A stretch of 64,000 nt of DNA, from assembly GCA_018238625.1 (NCBI GenBank), contig JABCSY010000006.1, positions 1 to 64,000 on the forward strand, in the 5' to 3' direction. Position 1 is the stretch's first letter. Each line of letters starts with the position of its first letter. The translations under genes and the position numbers were made by a program. Of this stretch, positions 4,448 through 48,907 are shown in pieces. Under the pieces are notes generated by a model. It was not told where the DNA came from, ran no database searches, and was given only the letters and a program-made list of their open reading frames with translations. The DNA comes from Promethearchaeota archaeon. Lineage in GTDB: Archaea > Asgardarchaeota > Lokiarchaeia > Sigyniarchaeales > SOKP01.

Positions 4448-5005
4448 TTGAAAATGGTAAATTATAGAAATAGTACGAAAAAGGGCTATACAAGAAGCTT
4501 TGAAGAAGCAGAAATGATATTGGACAATATTCCAGGATTTGTTTTTTATAAGGATACTATTGGGAGTATTCCCAATCTACTACAACGTATAAATGTTGAA
4601 CAAGAATTAGCTAAAAGTGAAAGATTACTATCAACAACATTAAGAAGTATAGGTGATGCAGTTATTTCCACAAATAGTAAAGGTAATGTATCGTTTTTAA
4701 ATCCAGTTGCCGAATCTTTAACTGGTTGGAAACAAAGTGAAGCTATAGGAAATCCTATAGAAGATGTCTTTAATATAATTAATGAAAAAACACGTAAACG
4801 GGTAAAAAATCCTGTATCGAGAGTCTTTCAAGAAGGCATCATTGTCGGTCTAGCGAACCATACTATCTTAATAGCTTATGAGCTCCATGCGAATTGTTTT
4901 ATCACCAAGCCTGTTGATATGGATCAATTTATCGAAGTTGTAAAATCTATCGAGAATTTTTGGTTTTCTATCGTAAAACTACCACCAAACAAGAATTTTC
5001 ATTGA
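4448..5005 (+). pseudogene. Chimeric ORF: PAS fragments fused to a duplicated receiver C-terminus
   Basis: PAS start ([12 protein letters not shown]) is cut short. A second PAS ([10 protein letters not shown]...LANHTILIA) joins [14 protein letters not shown]..., the near-identical tail of 7446-7913. Confidence 0.65.
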
Positions 5006-18333: not shown

Positions 18334-18822
18334 TTACCATTCAATCTCTTCGCCAAAATGTTTTATTGGCCAAGCCCAGTAATGCTTTTCCTTTTTAACT
18401 CCTTTTTTTTTCAATTCTTTAAATAAATTCTCCTTTTGTTCTTTTACCAATCCCAATGGGTCATACAGAAGTCTCCCTTCATCCAATGCATATAAAATAA
18501 GATCGGTTTTGATTCGAACTAAATTTTTAAATTCACTTTCAGTCATCCAAAGCGAATCTACTCTTGAAGGTGAGAACTCCATTAATTTTAATTTCAGCGC
18601 GCTTCTTTTTCTATGATGTTCTGGCAGTTCATTGTCTTTAAAAATTATAATTAAATCAATATCACTTCGCTTTTCTTCTGAATAAATGGCATCTCCTCTA
18701 GCCAATGAACCAAATAAAACAATTCCTACGATGATTTTATTTACTTGAAATAGTTGAGTTAAGTAGTTTTCCAATTTTGTTGAATAATACTCGTTATTTA
18801 AAAACTTCAAATTTATGTCCAT
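18334..18822 (-). CDS. Minimal nucleotidyltransferase (MNT antitoxin)
   Basis: LFGSLARGD...SDIDL motif; overlaps the HEPN gene. Confidence 0.85.
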   Translation of the reverse strand: MDINLKFLNNEYYSTKLENYLTQLFQVNKIIVGIVLFGSLARGDAIYSEEKRSDIDLIIIFKDNELPEHHRKRSALKLKLMEFSPSRVDSLWMTESEFKNLVRIKTDLILYALDEGRLLYDPLGLVKEQKENLFKELKKKGVKKEKHYWAWPIKHFGEEIEW

Positions 18823-19334
18823 TGTTTCAATTCTCCGAGTAATGATTCTAATCGATCTAAATCTTTAAATTCTTCTTTTGTCATGTTCAAGCTCTTCTTA
18901 AGAAGCTTTAAATATAAAATTACGATCTTTTCAAGATTTATGAGAAAATCTTTGATATTTTCGAAGGATTGATAAATCTCTTCAGCGATAATTAATTTAT
19001 TATTCTTGATTGTTCCATATCGAGTTTGAACCCCTTCATTCTCAAAAAATTTTGAATGTTTTAGAATTTTTTTAAGTATCTCTTTTGTTTCTAAATCTAT
19101 CGCTAAAGAAGACTCACTTTTTAGAACATCTTTTAAAATATCTGTTGGAACATGGGTTTTTTCCACTTTCAAACCCATAAAACTTAGGATAGCTTTATTT
19201 AATTTTTCTACTGCAAACTGACTTCTAAACGCTACAAGAGAAAAATAATCATTTTGAAGACTATTTATCACGATTTTTATATCACTTATAGCGGATTTGA
19301 TCAAACTTTTTCCTTGAGAAAAATTAGTATTCAT
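18813..19334 (-). CDS. HEPN domain protein (HEPN-MNT toxin-antitoxin pair)
   Basis: FRSQFAVEKLNKAIL...KTH...TRYG pattern; coupled to MNT. Confidence 0.75.
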   Translation of the reverse strand: MNTNFSQGKSLIKSAISDIKIVINSLQNDYFSLVAFRSQFAVEKLNKAILSFMGLKVEKTHVPTDILKDVLKSESSLAIDLETKEILKKILKHSKFFENEGVQTRYGTIKNNKLIIAEEIYQSFENIKDFLINLEKIVILYLKLLKKSLNMTKEEFKDLDRLESLLGELKQWT

Positions 19335-19563
19335 TTTATATGATATATATTTTCATTTATTCTACTAAATAATTATCTTTTTATTTATAAATTTTTATGA
19401 GTTTTATTCCTAAATCATTTGGAACGATTCAATTTTATTTCATTATTATAATAACATTATATTATTCTTATGCTGGAATTTAAAACAATCATTAGATTTT
19501 AATCGTTAATTTTCCTTTTGTTAGCATAAATAATCTGTGAAAGATAAAAAAAAATCAATTATA

Positions 19564-21264
19564 TTACTCTCTCATTTCTTTTGGAAGAGACAATACGCCT
19601 GTAAGCGGATTATTTAACGGATCTTGACAATATTCAATTGTGAAATATATTAAATCATTTAAAATATTTGGATCTTGTCCTGCCTTTAGTTTATAATCGT
19701 AAAGAGATAATTGATACTCCGCCTCAGTTATTGGAGGTTCCGCGTAGCTTACATTTCCAAAAACTGATTGAAGTATAGGTTTCAAAAACGGCGAGTAGAG
19801 AAAACCAAGTTCTTTTAATTCGTCTTTTAAGTAGAAAAACATCCTTTGAACTGCTTGCATCATATACCTAATAGGTTGATTCTCAGGCCCTAAATATTGT
19901 TCTGCAAAATTCGGGTCATATTGCGCGAGATGTTCTCGAGTAAGATTTTGAGGGCGGAATAACGATATTAACCCTCTTTCGATGGTAGTCTTTCTATTAT
20001 ACGCGATCGTCTCGCTACCCGCGTCCGGCACCCATACTCCTTGGTCTAATAACTTTCGAGTTTTATAACACATCGCTTGTAGTAATAAGGCGATCCCTAT
20101 TCTACGGCATATTGAAATTTGAGCGTCGCTAACTCTTATTTCAATTGTTCCCCAATCTGTGAATGGAAACACGTCTTGGAAGCGTCCATCCTCTAAACTC
20201 GCTTTCTGGACAACTTGAAGGAAGTAGTCGATTGTATCTTGGTCTCCCGAAGTTATATAGGGGGGAAAATGTTTAGGGTCGTTGTTACTTAACATTGTAG
20301 TGTTATTTTTTAACCTTAAAGAACGTACGCAATTTGGCGCTGTAATTCTATTATTAACTATTTTAATAACATCTGTTGGCTTATTATTTAATATAGGTGA
20401 ATTACATGTAAGAGCAATTATATGCGGAATAAAGTTACGAATCATACAATATGACTGCACTTTTTCTAAATCAGATTTAAAGGAGCCAATGTGGCTATGG
20501 TCCGCCTGGGTCAACCCGCGCATATATTCTTTAGCTGCTGGGTTAATGGCTGAAGCTATGATGTGTAAGTCTCTTGGTAGGGTGTTTTTTGCTAAAAGAA
20601 ATAAGGTTGATCCCCAATAAGCCAACTCCTCAACATATTCACATGGGGGCGTCACGAGTTCTAATATATAAGTAACTGCTGTAACATTACCATCACGACC
20701 AAAAGTATCAATGTCAACGACATTTCCATCTGGAAGCGGATATCTAATATCCATTACATATCCTTTTTCAATGTCATCCTTCCCATAAGGCCTTGCCAAT
20801 ACTTTTTGTCGAATATAATCGGGCACAGGTAAGAAATCGTCTCTTCCTTGGTATAAAATCTGATCCATAATTTTTATGGCATCTTTTACGATCTCTTTCA
20901 TCCGATAAACCATTTCATCACCGGGCGGGTAGTTACCACTGTCATCTGCGATAATTAATTCCATTTCAATTCCATGCGTGAAGGGTAAAGGGGTCCAATG
21001 CTCGATATCGGCTAAGATTTCCCCCCAAGATCTTTCGGGTATAAGTACTTCTCTGTAATCCGTTCCAAGAAACAATTGATCCGAAGATCTATCTATGGGT
21101 TCTCCAATAAAAACGCCTGAAGGAAGCCCCGACGCTGCTTTTGCCTTAGACTTATGCTTTTTACCCGTATCTTGTCCCATAATTTGCGAGAACGTATCGT
21201 ATTCATCTCCGCCTGATCCTTTCTTCTTTTTCTTTTTTTTATCCTTAGCCATAAATTCCTTCAC
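19564..21264 (-). CDS. Glutamate-cysteine ligase family 2 (GCS2/YbdK-like) carboxylate-amine ligase
   Basis: GIEMEL, LELVTPP, HSHIG, ALTCNSP, GTIEIRVSDAQ. Confidence 0.75.
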   Translation of the reverse strand: MKEFMAKDKKKKKKKGSGGDEYDTFSQIMGQDTGKKHKSKAKAASGLPSGVFIGEPIDRSSDQLFLGTDYREVLIPERSWGEILADIEHWTPLPFTHGIEMELIIADDSGNYPPGDEMVYRMKEIVKDAIKIMDQILYQGRDDFLPVPDYIRQKVLARPYGKDDIEKGYVMDIRYPLPDGNVVDIDTFGRDGNVTAVTYILELVTPPCEYVEELAYWGSTLFLLAKNTLPRDLHIIASAINPAAKEYMRGLTQADHSHIGSFKSDLEKVQSYCMIRNFIPHIIALTCNSPILNNKPTDVIKIVNNRITAPNCVRSLRLKNNTTMLSNNDPKHFPPYITSGDQDTIDYFLQVVQKASLEDGRFQDVFPFTDWGTIEIRVSDAQISICRRIGIALLLQAMCYKTRKLLDQGVWVPDAGSETIAYNRKTTIERGLISLFRPQNLTREHLAQYDPNFAEQYLGPENQPIRYMMQAVQRMFFYLKDELKELGFLYSPFLKPILQSVFGNVSYAEPPITEAEYQLSLYDYKLKAGQDPNILNDLIYFTIEYCQDPLNNPLTGVLSLPKEMRE

Positions 21265-39174: not shown

Positions 39175-39924
39175 ATGAGTTATACTCCATTTGAACTGCG
39201 TGTAATGCCACTCTTTTTTTATTACCTACTGCTTTCTGGGCTAGGGCTCCTACTTACAATAAAAATGTTTTTGAAATGGCGCGAAAGGAAAGTACCTGCT
39301 CCCTTATATTTGACTCTCGTTTTTATTTTTCTAACTACCGCTTTGGTAGGACTTACAATAGGCTTGTCTGAGGCCGTAATTACGGGATTTTATAAAGAAA
39401 TATATAGAATCTCTTTACCATTTGCTTATGGTATGGTTCTTTTTGCAGATTTCTTTTTGTTTCTTTTCGTGAGTCAGATAACAGAAAAAGGAAGAAAGGT
39501 GCTTATCCCGTTATTTATTATAGGGATAGGTGTATTCATTATGCTATTTTTACCTTGGAATTGGTGGGGGGTACCTCCTGAAGACTATGAAGGCTTATTA
39601 AATATTAGAATATACTCAACGTTGAGTCTAATATTATATTCATATGTTATTTACGTTTTAATCGCCATTACATGTCGTAAGGCAATGAAAAAAACAGATG
39701 ACAAGATAACTTCTACAGGCTTAAATTTATTATTTTATTCAATGATCTCTATGATTCTTTTCTTTCTAATGTTTATTGGGGATACTTTAATGATACAACT
39801 ATTCGATCATCCCGGTTACTCTGAGTTTGTTTATGTTGCTTGGATATTTGCTATAATCTTTTATGTTTTATCTTATTTATCGCTGGTTATGCCTAAGTGG
39901 CTTGTTAATCGGATTGAAAAATAA
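39175..39924 (+). CDS. Seven-TM membrane protein of unknown function
   Basis: About seven hydrophobic segments counted by eye. Confidence 0.65.
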   Translation: MSYTPFELRVMPLFFYYLLLSGLGLLLTIKMFLKWRERKVPAPLYLTLVFIFLTTALVGLTIGLSEAVITGFYKEIYRISLPFAYGMVLFADFFLFLFVSQITEKGRKVLIPLFIIGIGVFIMLFLPWNWWGVPPEDYEGLLNIRIYSTLSLILYSYVIYVLIAITCRKAMKKTDDKITSTGLNLLFYSMISMILFFLMFIGDTLMIQLFDHPGYSEFVYVAWIFAIIFYVLSYLSLVMPKWLVNRIEK

Positions 39925-39958: not shown

Positions 39959-42781
39959 TTAATAGTTATTCTCAAGCTCAAGTTTTATCGTTACTATTAT
40001 GTGCGGTTCCAAAGTTAAATCAAGATGATTCCCTTTACTTGAATCAATTTTTGCCTTAATGTCGTTTTCTGGCTTTTCTTCCAAAAAGTTTACAATATCC
40101 GCACTTTTGATGGAAGTTTTTTCGTGTAATGTTAACCTAGCTTTTTGAGTGGTTGGAGTGATGTTGTAGACTCTAACAACTAAAAACTCTCCTTCCTCCG
40201 ATTTCTTCAAAGCGCTAAGCATCACATTCCTGTTATCGATTTCAAGAAAGCTTAATTCAGCGGGTAAATAAGGTTTTAACGGTTGAGTAGGTGCTGGTTT
40301 AAAATATGAGATGATTCCAACAGGTGCTAGGATAACTTTATTCGAAGCTCTCATTGATGTTCTAACTATTGAGGGAACCACCACCTCAAAAGGGTTGTTA
40401 AATTCTTTACTTTTTATGTGAACGCTCGAATCTAACCAATTAGACTTGTTTCCTTCGACGACGAGAGAAAGTTCGAAAGTATGCTTGCCAAGACATTGAG
40501 CTTCTGGAGTATTTAGGTCTGGACCGGCGTTACTCCTTCTCGAGGCAAAATCGCCTCTTGAAAGCCATTCAATACACCGCAGTAATGTAATAGCCAGCGA
40601 AATAGTTCCATCTTTGTTTATAACTGCTTCGTATTCGGGTAATCCTTTGTTTATAACCGAAAAAGTTCTTGATGCATCGTTAACAGACACAAAGTCTTTC
40701 TGATGGTTAGTAGGTAAAGGCTGTTGGGCCCACCCTTCAGACTCTGGCATCTCAACATCTCGCGAAATGACGTAAAAATGACCGTCGGATTCTACTTTTT
40801 TAGATTTAATATTTGAAGGAAAAATTACTCGTATTCGATGGTCTTTACTATTGTTTTCTAATTCAATCTTAAAATCAATTCGTTTAATGTCTTTATATAC
40901 CGTTATATAGATATCAATTAAGTTTGAAATTAGATATTCGTCTCTACTATATCTATCATCGGTTAAAGAATTAGGCAAATTGATGTTTGCTCGTATTTTT
41001 ATCGTTTTTTGGGTTGCCCCGTCTAAAAACGGTGTTATTTCTAGAACATTCAGATCTTCTGAGGTGAATTTTAGATCAGTTTGATTATCATATGGTCCAG
41101 AAAAGTCATATTCGTCCCCCCAATCTCCTACATCTTCAAAATAACAAATATTTTCGTACAAAGTTTTGCTTTCCTTATCTAAAACATCGATTTTTCCTTT
41201 AAAACTTATGTCGATTTTGAAAAACTGATTTTCTAAGCTATTTATACCTAACTTCAATTGTTCGCTCTTTACTACAGATTCTTCTGGTTTTTCTCCTGGT
41301 ACGATATAATAACACCTGTATCCACAAGCAGGAACCTCGGCTAAGAACGAACAATAATAACTAATCGAACCAATAATTCGATATCTTGGTTCTTCGTTGA
41401 TTTGAACGTATTGGTATGAGATCTCGTTACCTTCAGAGTCGAGAATTTTGAAAGCGTCTGGATTTTTAAATCCAGCTTTTTTAGTCATAGATATAATGTT
41501 AATATTTGCGATATCTTTTCGTTTCCAAGGAAGAGGATTAAATACTACGATCGGAATTTTATTCTCGTCTTCCTCAACTGTGATCAAATCGTATAGATAC
41601 AATAATGAATTTTTAAACACTTCAACACCGATTTGCTCCGCCCAATCAAACCTAGTTTTCATTTCTCTATGAACTTGATCAATAGAACAGCCACATATGC
41701 TATCGTGGGGGTGGTTTTTAATAAGCCATTTTAAACCTGTGAGCATATAAGCTTGAGGGTAATTAAAATTTTTATATTTATCGAGAGACCATATAATTGT
41801 TGATAAGGGTTCTGTATATTTTTCGTACAGATATTCAATTGCTGTGTTTCTCTGTTTGATCCACATGCGAGCTGAAAATACTCCTGAAAGTAGATGAGCG
41901 TACTTTCCCCCTCTTAATTCGCCTTTGAACTGTTTTAACTCTGGATTACAGCCTAATACTTTATCGATGTAATATTCAAAATCGTTTTGTTCTAAAAGTT
42001 TCTCGGGATACATTTCGTTCCATTGTCTGACTATTTCAGGAATTTCCGATCGAGCTTCATGATGATCTGAACCGCTATTCAGAAGAACATAAGGTGTAGC
42101 TGTGAATTTTTCGAACTTGGAAACAACCCTTTTTATCTTATGAAGCGCTAGTTTATATTTTCCACTTTTTTTTGATAAATTAAGATCAGCAACCGAACCG
42201 TAGCTCTGCTTTAAAAATATTCCTAAAATAGAGCTAGAATCTCCGGGGGAATTCCAAATAAATTCAATGTTCAAGTTGTTTTCTTCGAATTCGTTACCAA
42301 ACCCTCGCCAGAATAAAATCGAAGGGATTTCAAATCCTTGAAGTATTTGAGGTAATTGAGCAATGTGGCCAAATGGATCAGGGATATAGCCTGCCTTCAT
42401 AACCCTTCCAAATCTTTTAGCAACTTTATGTCCAATTATTAAGTTCCTAATTAGAGATTCGCCACTTACCAAAAACTCATCTGGTAAAATATACATAGGG
42501 CCAATCGAAAGCCGCCTTTCTTTTACGTATTTTTTTATCTCATCTTCAAATTCAGGTCGAACTTCAAGATAGTCTTCTATCGGAATCGTTTGTCCGTCAA
42601 GAGTGAAGTTTTTATAATTTGGGTCGCTTCTTAGGATATCTAAGAGCTTATCCATCATAAGAACTAGTCTTCCTCTATACTCTTGAAACGGGAGATACCA
42701 ATCATGCTTTATACATCAATTGTATAAAGTTTCACGGTCCCAATGAGTTTCAGGAACTATAATTATGTTATTAGCTTTCAC
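39959..42781 (-). CDS. GH38 alpha-mannosidase, split gene: complement(join(39959..42700,42731..42781)), 930 aa
   Basis: Exon 1 (GTG)KANNIIIVPETHWDRE joins WYLPFQ to give the GH38 HWDREWY motif. Also LDGQ, GPMYILPDEF, PDPFGH, HPHDSICGCSID. Confidence 0.9.
42701..42730 (-). other. Putative 30-nt BHB-type intron in the GH38 gene (contains an in-frame TGA)
   Basis: CGTG AA^A CTTTATACA ATTGA TGTATAAAG CATG AT^T: 4-bp central helix, two 3-nt bulges, perfect 9-bp intron stem. Confidence 0.85.
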
Positions 42782-42900
42782 TTTAATTACTTGATTTTAT
42801 AATTTAATAATAATAATTGGAATTAATTTTACTTAATATTACATATCTTTTTGAAAATATTAAGATAAAAGAAGAAAAAAAATCAGATTTTCTTTTGTAA

Positions 42901-43761
42901 TTATCTCATTGAAGATTCTTTACTATCTATCTTTAAAGGATTTGTTAAAGGTTCAGTAATTCCAATTTTTTTTGCTATTTTTTGTATGTATCTCTTTCTA
43001 TGTTTTGCTGTGATATCTAATATAACAAATGCTGGAACAGCCATGACAATTAATAAAAAAGGTAATAATGGAATTAGAAAAACACCCGGATTAATGTCAA
43101 CAACTGCCAATGTATCAATTGTAAACTTCGCATAAATAAAAACAATAGAAATTCCTGCATATCCTTTTAGGATGTAATTATACCAACCTCCCACGCTCCG
43201 TACTTCTATAGGGTCTCGTATCCCGTTTACTTTTTCTTTATTTGTAAAGACAATCCCTCCATCAAGTAAAAACCAAATTGGTGAAAAAAGACCCATGGAT
43301 ATTCCAAACATTAAAGGAAGAATTGTCACAAGCGTCACCAAGGGAATTTTTAATTTGTCACTTACCTCTACTACATAAGTTGGAGATAATATTATATTTT
43401 GAACCCATTCAAACTGTGAAAACATTAGCGCAAAATTTATCGCCATGAGTGTTGGCCAAATTGCTTTAAAACCAATCTTTACTTTAAATGGCTCAGGTCG
43501 GTCTTGGATTCCATATTTCATCCTAATTCCTAAAGTATATTTATGAACAATTAGAAAAATAGGACCTAAGATATATCCTATAAAAATACTTCCAATGATC
43601 CCCGCAATTGCTGACATCCAAAATATGTAATACATTTGAAAGCCTAAATGATCTGGTAATAATTGAGTATACCCTGGAGAATCAACGAAAATTGTAAGCG
43701 CAAGAACTCCTAGCACGACTGAGAAAACAATTAGATGCTTTTTATAACTAATTTCTGACAT
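42901..43761 (-). CDS. Multi-pass membrane protein of unknown function
   Basis: Several hydrophobic helices. Confidence 0.6.
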   Translation of the reverse strand: MSEISYKKHLIVFSVVLGVLALTIFVDSPGYTQLLPDHLGFQMYYIFWMSAIAGIIGSIFIGYILGPIFLIVHKYTLGIRMKYGIQDRPEPFKVKIGFKAIWPTLMAINFALMFSQFEWVQNIILSPTYVVEVSDKLKIPLVTLVTILPLMFGISMGLFSPIWFLLDGGIVFTNKEKVNGIRDPIEVRSVGGWYNYILKGYAGISIVFIYAKFTIDTLAVVDINPGVFLIPLLPFLLIVMAVPAFVILDITAKHRKRYIQKIAKKIGITEPLTNPLKIDSKESSMR

Positions 43762-43872
43762 TTTCTAATCTAGATTTGTTTTAATTTAATTAAATGGAAT
43801 AGGGTTTTAAGGTAAAAAAGGATTACAAATTATTTTGACTATATTGTTAAAAAACTGTTTCATTAGTTAAGA

Positions 43873-45393
43873 TTAATACTTAAAAACAGATTTTCCAACA
43901 ACGCTGAAATGTGGTTTTTCGCCTAATAAATCTAAGAGCGTCGGAACCATATCCGTCGTTTTACAGTACGATAACTCCGTTGAGGGGATGTTTGGAGACC
44001 CTCCTATGATGAATGGCACAGTCATCGACTTTTTAAGTCCTATATCGTGAGTATATGGAGAATAAGGTTTAGATTCCCCATGTTCATAACCAAATCCATA
44101 TTCGCCAATCGTGGATATCATAATATCGCAAGAACGCGGATTTTTAAAATATCGAGGGATTTGATCTACTATCATCGGAAAATCAATTTTATTCGTTCCT
44201 TCTAACCACTCATCAATATTGTGAGCTTTATTATCTAAAAGCGCAGCGGATTCCTCGTAAGCTTCGTATTTGTATAAATCGCTTTCATCAACGATATATT
44301 TTGTTCGTTGATTTTTTCCATGACCCTCATATTCAATAATGTTTTTTGAAATTTTTCCTGATTTCTCGTTTAGATGTTCCACATATATTCTCCCTTTGTC
44401 AGGTGTGTTATCGTCGTCGCGGTAATACATCAATTTCACGCCCGGAATCTTCCATAAAGTTTCAAATAAATTCAATTTAGTCTTTCCTAAACCGCTTGGA
44501 ACAAATTCTTTTAATTGGTTAGTAGTCGGATGATGATGCCAATCTTTCCCTGGAAAGTTGAAAAATCCAACTGAACCAAAGCTAACGTCAAAATCACCAA
44601 TTCCTTTTCTAGGTAAGTATTGCATTAAACCCAATTCTTTAAAATAAGGTTCAACGTCATACAATTTTTCAGTTTTATAGTTTCCATGATCTGAAATAAT
44701 TCCAATCGCAGTTGAATCAAAATACCCTTTTTCCTTTAACATTTTAATTATTAGGCCAATAGATTCATCGCATTTAATAATTTCATTAATGTATTGTGGA
44801 TGAGAAAACCCTTTTTTATGCATAAGGTCGTCTGTTTTGGGGATATAAGCAACGCTTACTTTAGGTACTTCTTTGTTTGAAAAGATTTTTTTAGGATCTT
44901 TATATATCTCTTCAACCCCCTTTAATATCGATTGAGTGGTGTATTCTACTGGGGGAATTAATACCGATCCTCGATTAAAAAGGTTCAACGAGCTTAAAAA
45001 ATTACCTTCTCCTGCTTGTTCAAAAATAGTTCGACAATTTGGTCCTAAATCATTGTTAAATTTTAGGATATGGCTTCCCTTTCCGCCATTTCGGATAATT
45101 GGAAATTTCTTTCCTTCTGATGGCGGGTCTGTTCTGCCAACCCAATGATACATTGGTATACCACTTCCTTCTATAGGATAGTATCCCGAATAGGCTCCAA
45201 GAACTATATTAGTGTAACAAGGATATGTAATACTCGGAAAAGAAGTAGTACAATTTTGGCACGAGATTCCACTCTCAGCAAGTTGAGCTATATTTGGTAG
45301 CTTTCTTTGCTTAATTAAATCAAAAAGGTGGGACGCTCGGACATCATCAATAACGATTAAAATTACTTGATTAACTAAACTATTTCGAGGCAT
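43873..45393 (-). CDS. Alkaline phosphatase superfamily (nucleotide pyrophosphatase/phosphodiesterase)
   Basis: LIVIDD, FPSITYP, DDLMH, ISDHG, DMVPTLL. Confidence 0.85.
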   Translation of the reverse strand: MPRNSLVNQVILIVIDDVRASHLFDLIKQRKLPNIAQLAESGISCQNCTTSFPSITYPCYTNIVLGAYSGYYPIEGSGIPMYHWVGRTDPPSEGKKFPIIRNGGKGSHILKFNNDLGPNCRTIFEQAGEGNFLSSLNLFNRGSVLIPPVEYTTQSILKGVEEIYKDPKKIFSNKEVPKVSVAYIPKTDDLMHKKGFSHPQYINEIIKCDESIGLIIKMLKEKGYFDSTAIGIISDHGNYKTEKLYDVEPYFKELGLMQYLPRKGIGDFDVSFGSVGFFNFPGKDWHHHPTTNQLKEFVPSGLGKTKLNLFETLWKIPGVKLMYYRDDDNTPDKGRIYVEHLNEKSGKISKNIIEYEGHGKNQRTKYIVDESDLYKYEAYEESAALLDNKAHNIDEWLEGTNKIDFPMIVDQIPRYFKNPRSCDIMISTIGEYGFGYEHGESKPYSPYTHDIGLKKSMTVPFIIGGSPNIPSTELSYCKTTDMVPTLLDLLGEKPHFSVVGKSVFKY

Positions 45394-45479
45394 AATTAAA
45401 TTAAAAATATTATTTTAGTGGATAAATTCGCAATACATTAAAAAATTTTTTTATCGAACGCGATTACGGTTACTTTTAT

Positions 45480-46820
45480 CATTTTTCGCAAAAGAAAACA
45501 CGTTCCTTTAGGGATGCGATGAATTTTGCATCACTAAAAATTGAACCTCTTCTTCTTTAAATACAAGAAAATAATAGATTAACCAATGCAACTCGTTCGA
45601 CAAGTTCAATTCAAACGATCAAATCTCTTGGACGAGATAACTTTTCTTTCAAAAAACTTGTTTAACGTTGCCACCTACACGGTTCGACAACGGTTCTTCG
45701 TGGATCGTCATTGGGCTCGATATAACGAGTTATGGAAATTGCTAAAAACTCACGAGGCGTATAAAAAGCTTCAAGAGACGTGCGGTTCTCATCCGCCACA
45801 GCAAGTCCTTAAACAAGTAGATCGAAACTTCAAGAGCTTTTTTAAAGCGATTAAAATATGGAAAAAAGAACCGTCTAAATTTCAAGGAATGCCAAGGCTC
45901 CCACATTACAAACGTAAGAACGGTCGTAATTTGGTCTATTTCACTTCATTACAATGTAGGTTGAAGGACGGTTTTGTTTTACTCACGAGAAAGATGGAAA
46001 GATTAGGCTTTCCGAAAATAAAAACGGATCTCGAAAGCGTGAAAGGAGTTCGCATCGTTCCTTTCGGGGATCGATATAACATCGAATTGATCTACGACTA
46101 CGAGCCACTAGACTTGTACTTGAACGAGGATAACGTGTTAGGGATCGATTTAGGACTTAACAACATCGTAACTGCGTCAGATAACGTTGGAAACAACCCA
46201 CTGATTATCAAGGGCGGTGTCGTGAAGTCGATCAATCAATTCTATAACAAGCAATTAGCCAAATACAAATCATTCAGCAAGATTTGTAACGACACCGAAT
46301 TGACTAAGCGCATCTTGAAGCTTCATCGAAAGCGAAACAATAAAATTAGAGATTTTTTCCACAAAACTTCGAGAAAAGTAATCAATTACTGCATTTCTAA
46401 CGATATAGGAACGATAATCATCGGGTATAACGAAGGTTGGAAGCAAATGATCGCGATAGGGAAGAAAAACAACCAGAACTTCGTTTCCGTGCCATTGTTA
46501 AAACTCGTTCGGCAAGTAGAATACAAGTCCGAGATGGTTGGAATTAAAGTGGTGAGAATCACCGAAGAATATACTTCGCAAACGTGCTCTTCGTGTGGAG
46601 TCGTACGCAAGTCAAACCGCAAGTATCGCGGTCTATATGCGTGTAAAGATTGCGGAGTTGTTCTAAACGCCGATGTGAACGCTTCAAGAAACATGATACA
46701 GAAAGGAGTCCCTGAGTCCAAGTGGTTAGGGGATAGAGGATGCTTGAACCATCCATTAGTGTTAAAAGTTTAACGACTCTTAACCTGCGAATCCAAGCCC
46801 TTTAGGGTGTGGTAGTTCAA
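45480..46820 (+). mobile_element. IS200/IS605-family (IS1341-type, tnpB-only) insertion element; ends approximate
   Basis: Subterminal hairpins CGTTCC-TTTA-GGGATG (left, inside GCAAAA/TTTTGC) and GCCC-TTTA-GGGT (right), ending GTTCAA; locally higher GC; no tnpA. Confidence 0.75.
45586..46773 (+). CDS. tnpB: RNA-guided endonuclease TnpB
   Basis: GIDLG (RuvC-I), EEYTSQTCSSCG...CKDCG zinc finger, NADVNA (RuvC-III). Confidence 0.92.
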   Translation: MQLVRQVQFKRSNLLDEITFLSKNLFNVATYTVRQRFFVDRHWARYNELWKLLKTHEAYKKLQETCGSHPPQQVLKQVDRNFKSFFKAIKIWKKEPSKFQGMPRLPHYKRKNGRNLVYFTSLQCRLKDGFVLLTRKMERLGFPKIKTDLESVKGVRIVPFGDRYNIELIYDYEPLDLYLNEDNVLGIDLGLNNIVTASDNVGNNPLIIKGGVVKSINQFYNKQLAKYKSFSKICNDTELTKRILKLHRKRNNKIRDFFHKTSRKVINYCISNDIGTIIIGYNEGWKQMIAIGKKNNQNFVSVPLLKLVRQVEYKSEMVGIKVVRITEEYTSQTCSSCGVVRKSNRKYRGLYACKDCGVVLNADVNASRNMIQKGVPESKWLGDRGCLNHPLVLKV

Positions 46821-46871: not shown

Positions 46872-47972
46872 ATGAGTGAAGCAATTGAAAGAAATTTTAT
46901 TGTGGGAATCTTAGGGGATAATTTTGATATTAATAATCTAATAGGACAAGCGTTAGGTTCCCCCGGAACAAAATCAGATATTCTATTTTACAATCGCTTG
47001 GATGTAAGCCTAAATCAAGTGTTTTGTGGGCTAACTCCTATTGACTATCCCGAAAAAATTAAACCGCTTTTACAAACTCTAGCAATATCTAATATTCATT
47101 GTCTTGTAATAGATTTAAATGTGGGGTTAAATGCCTCTATTGGAGAAATATTAGTTGGAATGGATTTATTTTATCAACTCTTTAAAACTAAAGCTTTAAT
47201 AGTGATAGCTGGGATAAACTCGAAAACAGAGTGGAAGCTGCCTGAGATAAGAAAGAAGCTCGAAGCAATTTTGGAGAGCACTAGTTTGAACAATACAGAA
47301 ATATTCGAGTTAAAAATCAAAGAGGATTACGAAAATTTAAAGAAGAAAATTATTGATCTTGGCATTAAACTTCTGGAAAAAGAGCCAAATTCCGAAGAAA
47401 ATACTAAGATATTAATCGATCACGTGTTTCCAGTTAAAGGAATTGGTACTGTGATACTTGGAATTGTAAAGCAAGGAAAGGTTCAAAGCGGTCAAATGCT
47501 CGAAATAGTAGGTTATGAAGCAGCAGTAAAAAAAGTAATAATTCGAAGCATACAGAAACACGATAGAACTTTTAAGGTCGCCTACGAGGGCGATCGAGTA
47601 GGTCTTGCTTTAAAGGGAAATATTTCACCCCATGATGTTAGTCGAGATAATCTTTTAGTTAGTCCTGGAGTTTTTAAACAAGAACTTGAAATAAAAGCTA
47701 AGGTTTTTATAAATCAGTATTATGCGCCCAAAGGGGGAATAATAAAACCCGGCGATGGAGTTCAGTATTACGGTTTAGTAGGCTTAAAATTATCTCCTCT
47801 CAAATTTATTGAAGGCCAAGAATTAACTCCCGGTAAGAGCGGAGTCGTCAAGATTCTTTTTGATAAAACAGTAGTTCACGATGCCGAGGGACTTAAAGGA
47901 ATTATTACAGAATTAAATCGCTTCAATAATAAGCTACGCATTGTAGGATATTTTTTGCAAATCGAGGACTAA
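46872..47972 (+). CDS. SelB-like/EF-Tu domain 2 protein with degenerate G-domain
   Basis: IDHVFPVKGIGTVILG, IRSIQKHD, GDRVGLALKG; no intact GxxxxGK. Confidence 0.75.
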   Translation: MSEAIERNFIVGILGDNFDINNLIGQALGSPGTKSDILFYNRLDVSLNQVFCGLTPIDYPEKIKPLLQTLAISNIHCLVIDLNVGLNASIGEILVGMDLFYQLFKTKALIVIAGINSKTEWKLPEIRKKLEAILESTSLNNTEIFELKIKEDYENLKKKIIDLGIKLLEKEPNSEENTKILIDHVFPVKGIGTVILGIVKQGKVQSGQMLEIVGYEAAVKKVIIRSIQKHDRTFKVAYEGDRVGLALKGNISPHDVSRDNLLVSPGVFKQELEIKAKVFINQYYAPKGGIIKPGDGVQYYGLVGLKLSPLKFIEGQELTPGKSGVVKILFDKTVVHDAEGLKGIITELNRFNNKLRIVGYFLQIED

Positions 47973-47980
47973 GAATTCAA

Positions 47981-48907
47981 TTAAGTTTTATACTTATTAA
48001 TTTTTAAATTTTCTAAAATCTTTTTCATGAGCTTATACAACACTCCTTCTTCAAACGATTCTGTAGCGACTACTAGTGATTTAAGATTTATATTAGGTAT
48101 ATCAAGCGGTACCATTAGCATTCTGAGTATTTTATCGTCTACATTTATTAAATGTGTTTCTCCATCATTAAGATCTATCGTTTTTTTCTTTTGAGTTAAA
48201 TGGTAAAAGATTCGATAAGACTCATAAATTAAATTAATATCGAAATCATTAGATTTTGATTGGACAATTATACCATTATTATAATCTGTAATATAACAGA
48301 TCGATTTCGAAAAATCCCTAACGCTAACATCGAGAGATTTTTTAAGAGAAAAAGTTTTATCGGAAAATTTACTAAGGATTTCAGAAAAAGCATTATGAAT
48401 ACTATAAACGAATTCTTCATCTATACTCGTGAAATAAAGCAAATGTTCCATAGGTAAGTTGATGATACTCTGAATTTGGTATGTAAGTATTTTAACATTA
48501 TTTCTAATAGCCTTTGGAATTAGATCGATTTTATGAAAAATTATCATCAGTTTTGTTTCTTTATTAATCCTTTTAATAATATTATGTACTTCTTTAATCT
48601 CATCAGCGATTTCCTGTGAATTACTTTGCCAATTATCGTAATCAAAAATATAAATAACAGCGGCGGCATTTCCAAAAGCAATAATTTGTTCTGATTCTTC
48701 TTTCAGTAAACTATCTAATTCTTGTCCAGAAGTATCAAAAACGCTTAACTCTAAATCTAACCAAGAATAGTTTGATGTTTCTATTCCTCGAGTTGGCTCG
48801 AGAGAATGAACTAAAAGCTCGTTGGGGTCCCCACCCTCAAATATAATTCTTTTTAATGTTGATTTTCCTACACCCGCTCTTCCTAATAATAATAGTTTTC
48901 GTGCCAT
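47981..48907 (-). CDS. Rag/Gtr1-like small GTPase with C-terminal roadblock-like domain
   Basis: GRAGVGKS, EPT, DTSGQE, HKID. Confidence 0.8.
   Translation of the reverse strand: MARKLLLLGRAGVGKSTLKRIIFEGGDPNELLVHSLEPTRGIETSNYSWLDLELSVFDTSGQELDSLLKEESEQIIAFGNAAAVIYIFDYDNWQSNSQEIADEIKEVHNIIKRINKETKLMIIFHKIDLIPKAIRNNVKILTYQIQSIINLPMEHLLYFTSIDEEFVYSIHNAFSEILSKFSDKTFSLKKSLDVSVRDFSKSICYITDYNNGIIVQSKSNDFDINLIYESYRIFYHLTQKKKTIDLNDGETHLINVDDKILRMLMVPLDIPNINLKSLVVATESFEEGVLYKLMKKILENLKINKYKT

Follow-up and report, generated by a model that had tools for sequence, protein, structure and literature searches.

A candidate bulge-helix-bulge mini-intron in a GH38 alpha-mannosidase gene of a Promethearchaeota archaeon, with indications of its mobility

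How can an enzyme be made from a gene whose catalytic motif is split by a stop codon? The question is raised by a 64,000-nucleotide (nt) stretch of the genome of a Promethearchaeota archaeon (assembly GCA_018238625.1, contig JABCSY010000006.1, positions 1 to 64,000, forward strand), called the window here, in which the gene for a GH38 alpha-mannosidase is interrupted by a 30-nt insert. Our analyses suggest, with a probability of about nine in ten, that this insert represents an intron of bulge-helix-bulge (BHB) type that would be removed from the mRNA. They also suggest, less firmly, that the intron is mobile.

The genome comprises 4.29 Mb in 201 contigs, has a G+C content of 32%, and is 97.9% complete with 7.6% contamination. 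The sequencing runs that contain this stretch were cold-seep and marine-sediment metagenomes, and close relatives of the GH38 gene were found in metagenome-assembled genomes of Promethearchaeota/Promethearchaeia (Asgard archaea). G, C and L numbers below are our own labels.

A precise insert in the GH38 gene

The gene lies on the minus strand. Its reading starts at a GTG (42781-42779); CAT TGG GAC CGT GAA ends at 42731, and TGG TAT follows from 42700. The 30 nt between them (42730-42701, ACTTTATACAATTGATGTATAAAGCATGAT) separate HWDRE from WY, and conceptual read-through of this region gives VKANNIIIVPETHWDRETLYN*CIKHDWYLPF. After the insert the frame runs for 913 codons to the stop at 39959, and the TGA inside the insert is the sole in-frame TGA of the 940-codon reading. 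The parts of the gene are as follows.

42731-42781, minus strand: GH38 exon 1 of 17 codons, opened by GTG (VKANNIIIVPETHWDRE), containing the H-x-D metal-binding motif
42733-42736, minus strand: exon strand of the 4-bp central helix, CGTG (codons CGT GAA), within GACCGTGAA, which is invariant in 13/13 carriers of the insert; helix paired in 100% of cells of their alignment
42701-42730, minus strand: 30-nt BHB mini-intron (putative), with TGA at 42718-42716, stem arms at 42729-42721 and 42715-42707, loop at 42720-42716 and CATG at 42706-42703
39959-42700, minus strand: GH38 exon 2, WYLPFQEY... to the stop, covering the rest of the N domain and the middle and C domains (Pfam and PDB matches)

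A search of all PDB chains with phmmer aligned 5kbp, 3lvt, and 2wyh with E values from 9e-105 (5kbp) to 4e-96, and the gap against these structures comprised exactly the ten insert-encoded residues TLYN*CIKHD, between HWDRE and WYLP. Excision of 42730-42701 joins GAA to TGG and gives the HWDREWY that runs without a gap in solved GH38 structures and in 67 intron-less homologues. Translation, the PDB alignment, and the homologues thus confirmed the position and length that a first-pass annotation of this DNA had given for an insert with an in-frame stop splitting HWDRE/WY. The ortholog alignment that it had proposed as a check was run, and 67 distinct homologues lack exactly these 30 nt.

The same annotation had stated that the 899-amino-acid (aa) open reading frame (ORF) called from Met 42658 lacks the H-x-D of HWDRE, which we take to be a metal ligand, and that the rest of the gene is intact. 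Both statements held. The Pfam GH38 N-domain profile was matched from position 2 by the read-through form and only from position 32 by the 899-aa ORF; PF01074, PF09261, PF07748, and PF17677 (GH38 N, middle, and C domains) all scored above their cut-offs, and the 940 codons contain no other in-frame TGA.

A DNA contig from a separate study spans 42552-42900 with 2 mismatches and 0 gaps and contains the insert, which is therefore not an assembly artefact. The insert occurs as a single copy in the genome. Its identity as a repeat or miniature inverted-repeat transposable element was rejected: there was no second genomic copy within 6 substitutions, and pattern matches in metagenomes were found only in GH38, at the same site. 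A second example, to which the first-pass annotation had alluded, was not found in the window; the only in-frame indels seen against the syntenic 45 kb of the relative G016 (~91% identity) were two, at 21132 and 54720, both free of stops. The overlapping ORFs at 18334-19352, taken from the ATG within the overlap, read as two separate genes.

Structure of the insert

CGTG (42736-42733) can pair with CATG (42706-42703) in 4 bp, one of them G-U, flanked by the 3-nt bulges AA^A and AT^T. The inner stem, CTTTATACA/TGTATAAAG, is a perfect 9 bp closed by a 5-nt loop that holds the TGA. All of these elements had been described beforehand and are present. The pairing between exons proposed with them stood in part: the C-G pair and GGGA/UCCC were found in 13/13 sequences of the insert and its surroundings, whereas TGAAAC/GUUUCA was paired in only 74% of cells.

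The archaeal splicing endonuclease cuts after the second base of each bulge, and cutting in this way in the GH38 motif frees exactly 30 nt. In a 116-nt context, the BHB was the minimum-energy fold given by RNAfold (-25.5 kcal/mol, z -1.94), and 9/200 shuffled sequences folded as well. When both strands of the genome (8.58 million positions) were scanned for this arrangement, requiring 9 bp or more in a Watson-Crick stem and 3-8 nt in the loop, 22 sites were returned. That one of these falls in register with an insert bounded by homology is not due to chance.

Occurrence and conservation in relatives

We examined 103 GH38 loci, drawn from 41 genomes and 80 further loci. The 30-nt insert was present at the site in 20, absent from 79, and could not be scored in 4 that were cut by contig ends. 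Once genomes reached twice had been dropped, 13 distinct Asgard (Promethearchaeota) carriers stood against 67 non-carriers. A metagenome scan with a degenerate intron pattern added two contigs, both GH38 with the insert at the same site.

In-frame stops occurred in 13/13 inserts and differed in kind and place (TAA, TAG, one or two TGA). The carrier genes were otherwise open, and exon 1 with its start codon was kept in every carrier. Recoding of the TGA, which the first-pass annotation had named as the alternative to an intron, is excluded, since orthologous inserts have TAA, TAG, or two TGA elsewhere and the 940 codons hold one TGA.

In the alignment of the 13 inserts, 90.4% of cells were paired, against 35-56% when the partners were slid. 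Changes on both sides were found in 6/9 stem pairs, and the covariation score was reached by 0/500 shuffles. The central helix was paired in every cell, with variation between G-C and G-U and between U-A and U-G. On the exon side GACCGTGAA was fixed in all 13 carriers, while non-carriers use GATAGAGAA, GACCGCGAG, and others for the same residues. The dN/dS of exon 2 was 0.06-0.15 among carriers and 0.12-0.22 between carriers and intron-less sisters, values which indicate that the carrier genes are under purifying selection. Together, the stops, the covariation, the exon bases fixed only in carriers, and the purifying selection argue for an RNA structure in use within a gene in use, and so point to a spliced intron.

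Splicing enzymes and a model for removal of the intron

The genome encodes two EndA proteins (PF01974 at C58 and C7, both above cut-off). One matches the catalytic repeat (alpha-like), and the other the structural repeat together with a weak match to the beta subunit (beta-like). The two genes span L004:1453-2055 and L005:1435-2040, each on the minus strand. A single RtcB gene is located at C24 (556.8 bits). Passages of a study of these enzymes (PMC5829648) attribute to Asgard archaea an (alpha-beta)2 splicing endonuclease with a loop insert linked to broad specificity, and report that the (alpha-beta)2 and epsilon2 types cleave non-canonical introns.

ARAGORN found 19 tRNA genes in the genome, 11 of them with introns (some calls are dubious); the plausible introns span ~15-35 nt. 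Just 19 tRNA genes were thus called despite ~98% marker completeness, and many others are probably hidden by unusual or multiple introns.

According to the model that we favor, exon CGUG in the pre-mRNA would pair with intron CAUG, leaving the bulges AA^A and AU^U on either side next to the 9-bp hairpin of the intron. Each bulge would be cut by the tRNA-splicing endonuclease, of alpha/beta type, and ligation of the exons by RtcB would give GAA|UGG. HWDRE-WY would be restored in this way and a full-length enzyme with H-x-D produced; the excised 30-mer would probably be circularised.

Probable mobility of the intron and the neighbouring endonuclease genes

On a gene tree with 74 distinct rows, 12 changes were needed for 12 carriers, and on a 97-row tree well-supported branches forced at least 9 intron changes. 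Several carriers have intron-less sisters that have diverged by just 3-8% in protein. The window intron differs at 5/30 positions from that of the 93%-identical orthologue in G008; yet it equals those of L065 and L111 at 30/30 positions, in genes with 62-65% protein identity to that of the window and with 48-51/210 nt different in the flanks. It lies 1-3 nt from the introns of L068, L091, and L113 (proteins 60-65% identical), and across these five loci the flanks differ from the window at 48-60/210 nt. When sister pairs are compared, it is around the junction that differences are concentrated, as in GATAGAGAA versus GACCGTGAA, which looks like a short conversion tract.

A LAGLIDADG ORF was present upstream of GH38 in 5/12 carriers and 0/62 non-carriers, when loci were counted only if their upstream flank reached 1300 nt or more (Fisher p 4.9e-5, uncorrected for relatedness). 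It was found in G016, G004, G001, G009, and L091, and on the metagenome contig L118. The ORF lies between a phosphodiesterase-like gene and GH38, is divergent from GH38 where the strand was read, and is uninterrupted in G016, G009, G004, and G001. Two LAGLIDADG motifs are conserved (AYWLGFLYADGSV and LAWLLGYYDGDG). PF14528 matched 5/6 members of the family (best E 5.4e-11), and the family profile matched I-HjeMI (1.9e-6) and I-AniI (1.2e-5), as well as I-MsoI and I-CreI.

The order of elements in G016 is the phosphodiesterase-like gene, an orphan promoter with exon 1, the LAGLIDADG ORF, a second exon 1, and then the intron and exon 2. The orphan was located as follows.

L119:4100-4203 (G016:C65, ~68100-68203): orphan promoter and exon 1 of G016, ~1.4 kb upstream of the working exon 1

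It is a copy of the native promoter together with exon 1 (VKANNIIIVPETHWDRE), written in codons of the intron-less type (GATCGCGAA), and it ends exactly at the insertion point of the intron. The second promoter and exon 1 differ from it. The LAGLIDADG ORF (419-428 aa) is on the opposite strand, and its stop codon is 5 nt from the orphan exon 1; it spans L119:4212-5468 (minus strand), and its counterpart in G009 spans L019:252-1256.

The layout known from collaborative homing, with an endonuclease gene outside an ORF-less intron, is thus seen in G016, G004, G001, G009, and L091/L118 and not in the window; the intron-less GH38 site is the putative target of the enzyme. Under the proposed mechanism, the free-standing, double-motif LAGLIDADG endonuclease would recognise the conserved sequence coding for HWDRE|WY and cut there in GH38 genes that lack the intron. 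A copy with the intron would then serve as the template for repair, and the intron would be passed on together with a few exon bases at its flanks and, in some cases, the gene of the endonuclease. By splitting the target site, the intron would protect its carrier. The copy in the window may have arrived without the endonuclease gene or outlived it, and the orphan exon of G016 may have been left by a cut at which homology guided the repair on just one side. We consider it likely that the GH38 intron is a mobile element spread by such endonuclease-driven conversion.

LAGLIDADG genes of this family were found in 18/24 genomes of the genus, with up to 6 copies, in 2/11 genomes of a sister family, and in 0/5 of two other families. 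The present genome has two paralogues:

G000:C12:4042-5433 (L120:543-1934), minus strand: LAGLIDADG paralogue between an Asp/Asn-tRNA-synthetase-like gene and gatA (both named by eye)
G000:C42:17034-18299 (L121): LAGLIDADG paralogue cut by the contig end

They are 28-35% identical to the G016 protein, and no mini-intron was found beside them on C12 and C42. Other LAGLIDADG matches (G020:C10:57095-57883, G004:C235:1274-2230, and G004:C70:2639-3238) are embedded in open frames of 1049-1303 aa and may represent inteins or fusions, not free-standing genes.

Putative mini-introns in other genes

A scan of thirty loci for compact, frame-joining BHB motifs gave, in addition to GH38, two cases confirmed by homology and three matches that were taken as chance. 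The confirmed inserts are:

L145:1048-1080 (G017:C11), minus strand: 33-nt insert in the aEF-1alpha gene, also in L159 (G018:C106)
L150:497-526 (G009:C47): 30-nt insert in an Amidohydro_3 gene, with a LAGLIDADG gene ~1 kb downstream on the other strand

The aEF-1alpha insert of G017 has an in-frame TAA and splits the Lys codon of the GHIDHG-K-ST P-loop. Drawn by hand, it has the helix ATGG/CCAT and a stem of 8 bp, and its bulges are AA^T and AT^A. The insert of G018 is that of G017 with 2 nt different. It was absent in 27 other genomes, and the motif was not found in 3; the aEF-1alpha of the present genome is uninterrupted. Each genome gave a single aEF-1alpha match, including G017 (98% complete) and G018 (100%), and it is difficult to account for a stop in the one gene that encodes this essential translation factor if the insert stays in place. 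Directly upstream of aEF-1alpha in G017 there is a LAGLIDADG gene in decay.

The insert in the Amidohydro_3 gene of G009, whose protein presumably resembles formylmethanofuran dehydrogenase subunit A, falls between positions 288 and 302 of the Pfam profile. It is a textbook BHB with a 5-bp outer helix (minimum free energy -26.4 kcal/mol, z -2.18), and the orthologue in the present genome lacks it precisely. Both this insert and that of aEF-1alpha are in phase 1, within a codon.

Taken with GH38, these cases make it more likely than not that the genus harbours mobile, protein-spliced BHB mini-introns of 30-33 nt in the most conserved motifs of protein-coding genes (the GH38 H-x-D, the aEF-1alpha P-loop, and the amidohydrolase core), spread by free-standing LAGLIDADG endonucleases that would cut the empty site.

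Alternative explanations

The insert might be an unremoved scar or immunity insert of the homing system, and the gene a young pseudogene or one that yields only the 899-aa product from Met 42658 without H-x-D. Such a dead gene would agree with the stop and the split catalytic motif and with the lack of any RNA contig that reaches the splice junction; the gains look recent, so intact ORFs could mean too little time for decay. A scar at the DNA level, however, needs neither a hairpin kept by compensatory changes nor helix exon bases fixed only in carriers. In addition, exon 1, the start codon, and an open exon 2 were kept in 13/13 carriers and in the 2 metagenome copies as far as the contigs show, and a similar insert is found in the single aEF-1alpha of two genomes that are nearly complete, although loss of that gene's function should kill the cell. 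We regard this explanation as very improbable. Programmed translational bypassing, which is known from phage T4 gene 60, has even less to recommend it. Ribosomes would take off at GAA (Glu17), skip 30 nt over the hairpin, and land before UGG. The codon before the landing site is GAU in 12/13 versions and GAG in one and so differs from GAA, the stop does not adjoin the take-off codon but comes 4-5 codons later, and the 4-bp exon-intron helix and the 3-nt bulges would have no role. The phase-1 inserts in aEF-1alpha and the amidohydrolase fit cutting and joining of RNA, not hopping from codon to codon, and we know of no bypassing in archaea. A 30-nt hop would nevertheless yield the same protein, and a stable hairpin does follow the take-off codon directly, with a stop inside it.

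An intron that is real and spliced could also be old and vertically inherited, its patchy distribution being the result of many precise losses, and the LAGLIDADG gene could be an unrelated selfish element that favours the spot. We think this unlikely, although it has more in its favour than an inactive gene or bypassing: the introns within the GH38 clade of the window have diverged with covariation, as expected from long residence, 7/12 carriers have no endonuclease gene, and LAGLIDADG genes are common in the genus, as the counts above show. It is opposed by introns that are identical or 1-3 nt apart in genes that are 60-65% identical in protein, by the separation of all 12 carriers on the 74-row tree, at least four of which (L006, L068, L091, and L111) have close intron-less sisters, and by the restriction of the endonuclease gene to the neighbourhood of carriers. 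Related endonuclease genes also adjoin two other genes that have mini-introns, and the orphan exon of G016 ends exactly at the intron site. Each of these rival explanations conflicts with at least one of the following: the covariation, the phase-1 inserts, the case of the essential gene, and the identical introns in diverged genes.

Removal of a BHB intron and its spread by endonucleases are our preferred explanation, and several results count against one or the other. In a 70-nt context, RNAfold retained the stem and swapped the 4-bp helix for another pairing (z -2.49); the 70-nt and 116-nt folds differ, so thermodynamics alone leaves the central helix unfixed. Changes in this helix are one-sided only, which lends weak support to the pairing. 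The outer, exon-exon helix has a single C-G pair beside the 3' bulge, then a 5-nt asymmetric loop, and then GGGA/UCCC, so the motif is a relaxed, non-canonical form of BHB. The BHB was not the minimum-energy fold of the aEF-1alpha insert (z -0.24). A genome-wide census of BHB motifs that join ORFs showed no excess over frame-shifted decoys, in which the 3' site was moved by 1-2 nt (e.g. 4583 vs 4626-4768), and such introns must therefore be rare in this genome; the compact-hairpin class had 15 members against 7-10 decoys, of which only GH38 was convincing, and a looser BHB scan of the window gave pure noise. If carriers gained the intron recently, their dN/dS mostly reflects the time before insertion. 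Contigs of one metatranscriptome span 40984-42530 of the GH38 gene of a ~92-93% identical relative and leave the intron ~170 nt beyond their end; two further runs listed as "RNA" probably consist of DNA.

On the side of mobility, five phylogenetically independent pairs agreed with the association between intron and endonuclease gene or were uninformative, none being contrary, with a sign-test p of 0.0625; this is the best value that five pairs can give, so p<0.05 is out of reach and the association corrected for phylogeny is limited accordingly. The LAGLIDADG copy in L091/L118 has two in-frame stops, and the window is itself among the carriers with no endonuclease gene adjoining GH38.

The metatranscriptome contigs over the body of GH38 give at most a hint of transcription of such genes in sediment.

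Other genes of the window

Two genes upstream of GH38 occupy the region in which relatives have the LAGLIDADG gene and its neighbour:

42901-43764, minus strand: 286-aa ORF without Pfam match, between the phosphodiesterase-like gene and GH38, where relatives have the LAGLIDADG gene
43873-45414, minus strand: phosphodiesterase/sulfatase-like gene (PF01663, PF00884), the usual upstream neighbour of GH38 in relatives (synteny)

The 286-aa ORF showed no similarity to the LAGLIDADG endonuclease, and its homologues were found upstream of GH38 only in G008, L022/L089, and L081. This ORF and another at 39175-39924 (plus strand), which together flank GH38, belong to no Pfam family and gave no alignment of at least 300 nt to the syntenic region of G016. 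A TnpB-like gene at 45586-46770 (plus strand), with OrfB_IS605 and Cas12f1-like TNB domains, likewise gave none and for this reason looks like an insertion in this genome. The ORF at 46872-47969 (plus strand) encodes an EF-Tu-like protein of which only domain 2 (PF03144) was recognised; no P-loop is readable in its N-terminal region (VGILGDNFDINN...), and its start and end are nearly alike in G016. At 47984-48907 (minus strand) there is a small GTPase of the Gtr1/RagA family (PF04670, E 1e-22), which we take to be a eukaryote-like signature protein that fits the Asgard origin of the window.

Implications and comparison with known systems

If the GH38 insert is spliced, gene callers would truncate such genes, here to an 899-aa product without the metal site, and in the archaea closest to eukaryotes mRNAs would be among the substrates of the tRNA-splicing endonuclease and RtcB. 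Should the other mini-introns behave alike, splicing of mRNA by the tRNA-splicing machinery would be routine in these organisms and would extend even to a translation factor that is essential. Introns would have a concrete route into protein-coding genes, through co-conversion after an endonuclease has cut a conserved site, and the LAGLIDADG enzymes would be candidates with defined natural targets.

In the titles, beginnings of abstracts, and passages that our literature search covered, we found no description of a coding-sequence BHB intron in Asgard archaea, in GH38 or aEF-1alpha, or tied to a free-standing homing endonuclease. The main text of a preprint on Asgard tRNA introns (10.64898/2026.10.13.758758) mentions no mRNA introns. 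What is new is the combination of protein-coding hosts, the Asgard lineage, and a free-standing LAGLIDADG gene.

Splicing of HAC1/XBP1 mRNA uses RtcB-type ligation. As summarised in passages on that system, it also resembles the GH38 case in that a short mRNA intron is removed by a protein endonuclease that recognises an RNA structure (PMC13149111; PMC12530127). It differs in that IRE1 is unrelated to EndA, and in that the reaction is stress-regulated, changes the frame, and involves no mobility.

Among coding sequences, the closest precedent comes from Crenarchaeota, where the BHB intron of the cbf5 pre-mRNA was shown experimentally to be spliced (Watanabe 2002; Yokobori 2009, PMC2738675). 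According to a passage of PMC7714728, this was as of 2020 the only BHB intron reported in an archaeal coding region. Both cases involve a short intron in an archaeal coding sequence, protein-spliced in cbf5 and presumably so in GH38, a BHB-type motif, patchy gain and loss, and hosts with heterotetrameric EndA. In contrast, the present intron, for which we infer splicing, is in another gene, in Asgard archaea, at another position within a catalytic motif, and linked to a homing-endonuclease gene. HVO_1309 of Haloferax volcanii is likewise an mRNA substrate of the archaeal splicing endonuclease; its BHB intron lies in the 5' untranslated region, outside the reading frame, and the passages of the report that describe it do not mention mobility (PMC7714728).

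In the mode of spread, the likeness is to archaeal rRNA BHB introns with LAGLIDADG homing endonucleases and to the hairpin mini-introns at the 16S loci 1213 and 1205 of Pyrobaculum oguniense. As described in passages of PMC4496867, the latter are BHB introns of <50 nt, with little beyond the hairpin, and interrupt sites of high conservation; their empty site is cut by an endonuclease whose gene lies elsewhere, which leads to co-conversion, and the endonuclease genes decay after the spread. There, Thermoproteales rRNA genes are the hosts and a neighbouring intron carries the endonuclease gene, whereas for GH38 the host is protein-coding and the endonuclease gene is free-standing. This last arrangement is shared with the collaborative homing of phages, in which, as a passage of PMC3984707 describes, a free-standing endonuclease gene adjoins a gene whose ORF-less intron interrupts the presumed target, and intron and endonuclease travel together or apart (see also PMC2790892, PMC6083498). 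The phage introns are self-splicing group I introns served by HNH or EndoVII-type enzymes, unlike the apparently protein-spliced BHB intron and the LAGLIDADG gene of a cellular archaeon; cleavage at the insertion site was demonstrated in the phages and is presumed for GH38. If our reading of these loci is correct, they would be an archaeal mRNA counterpart of phage collaborative homing.

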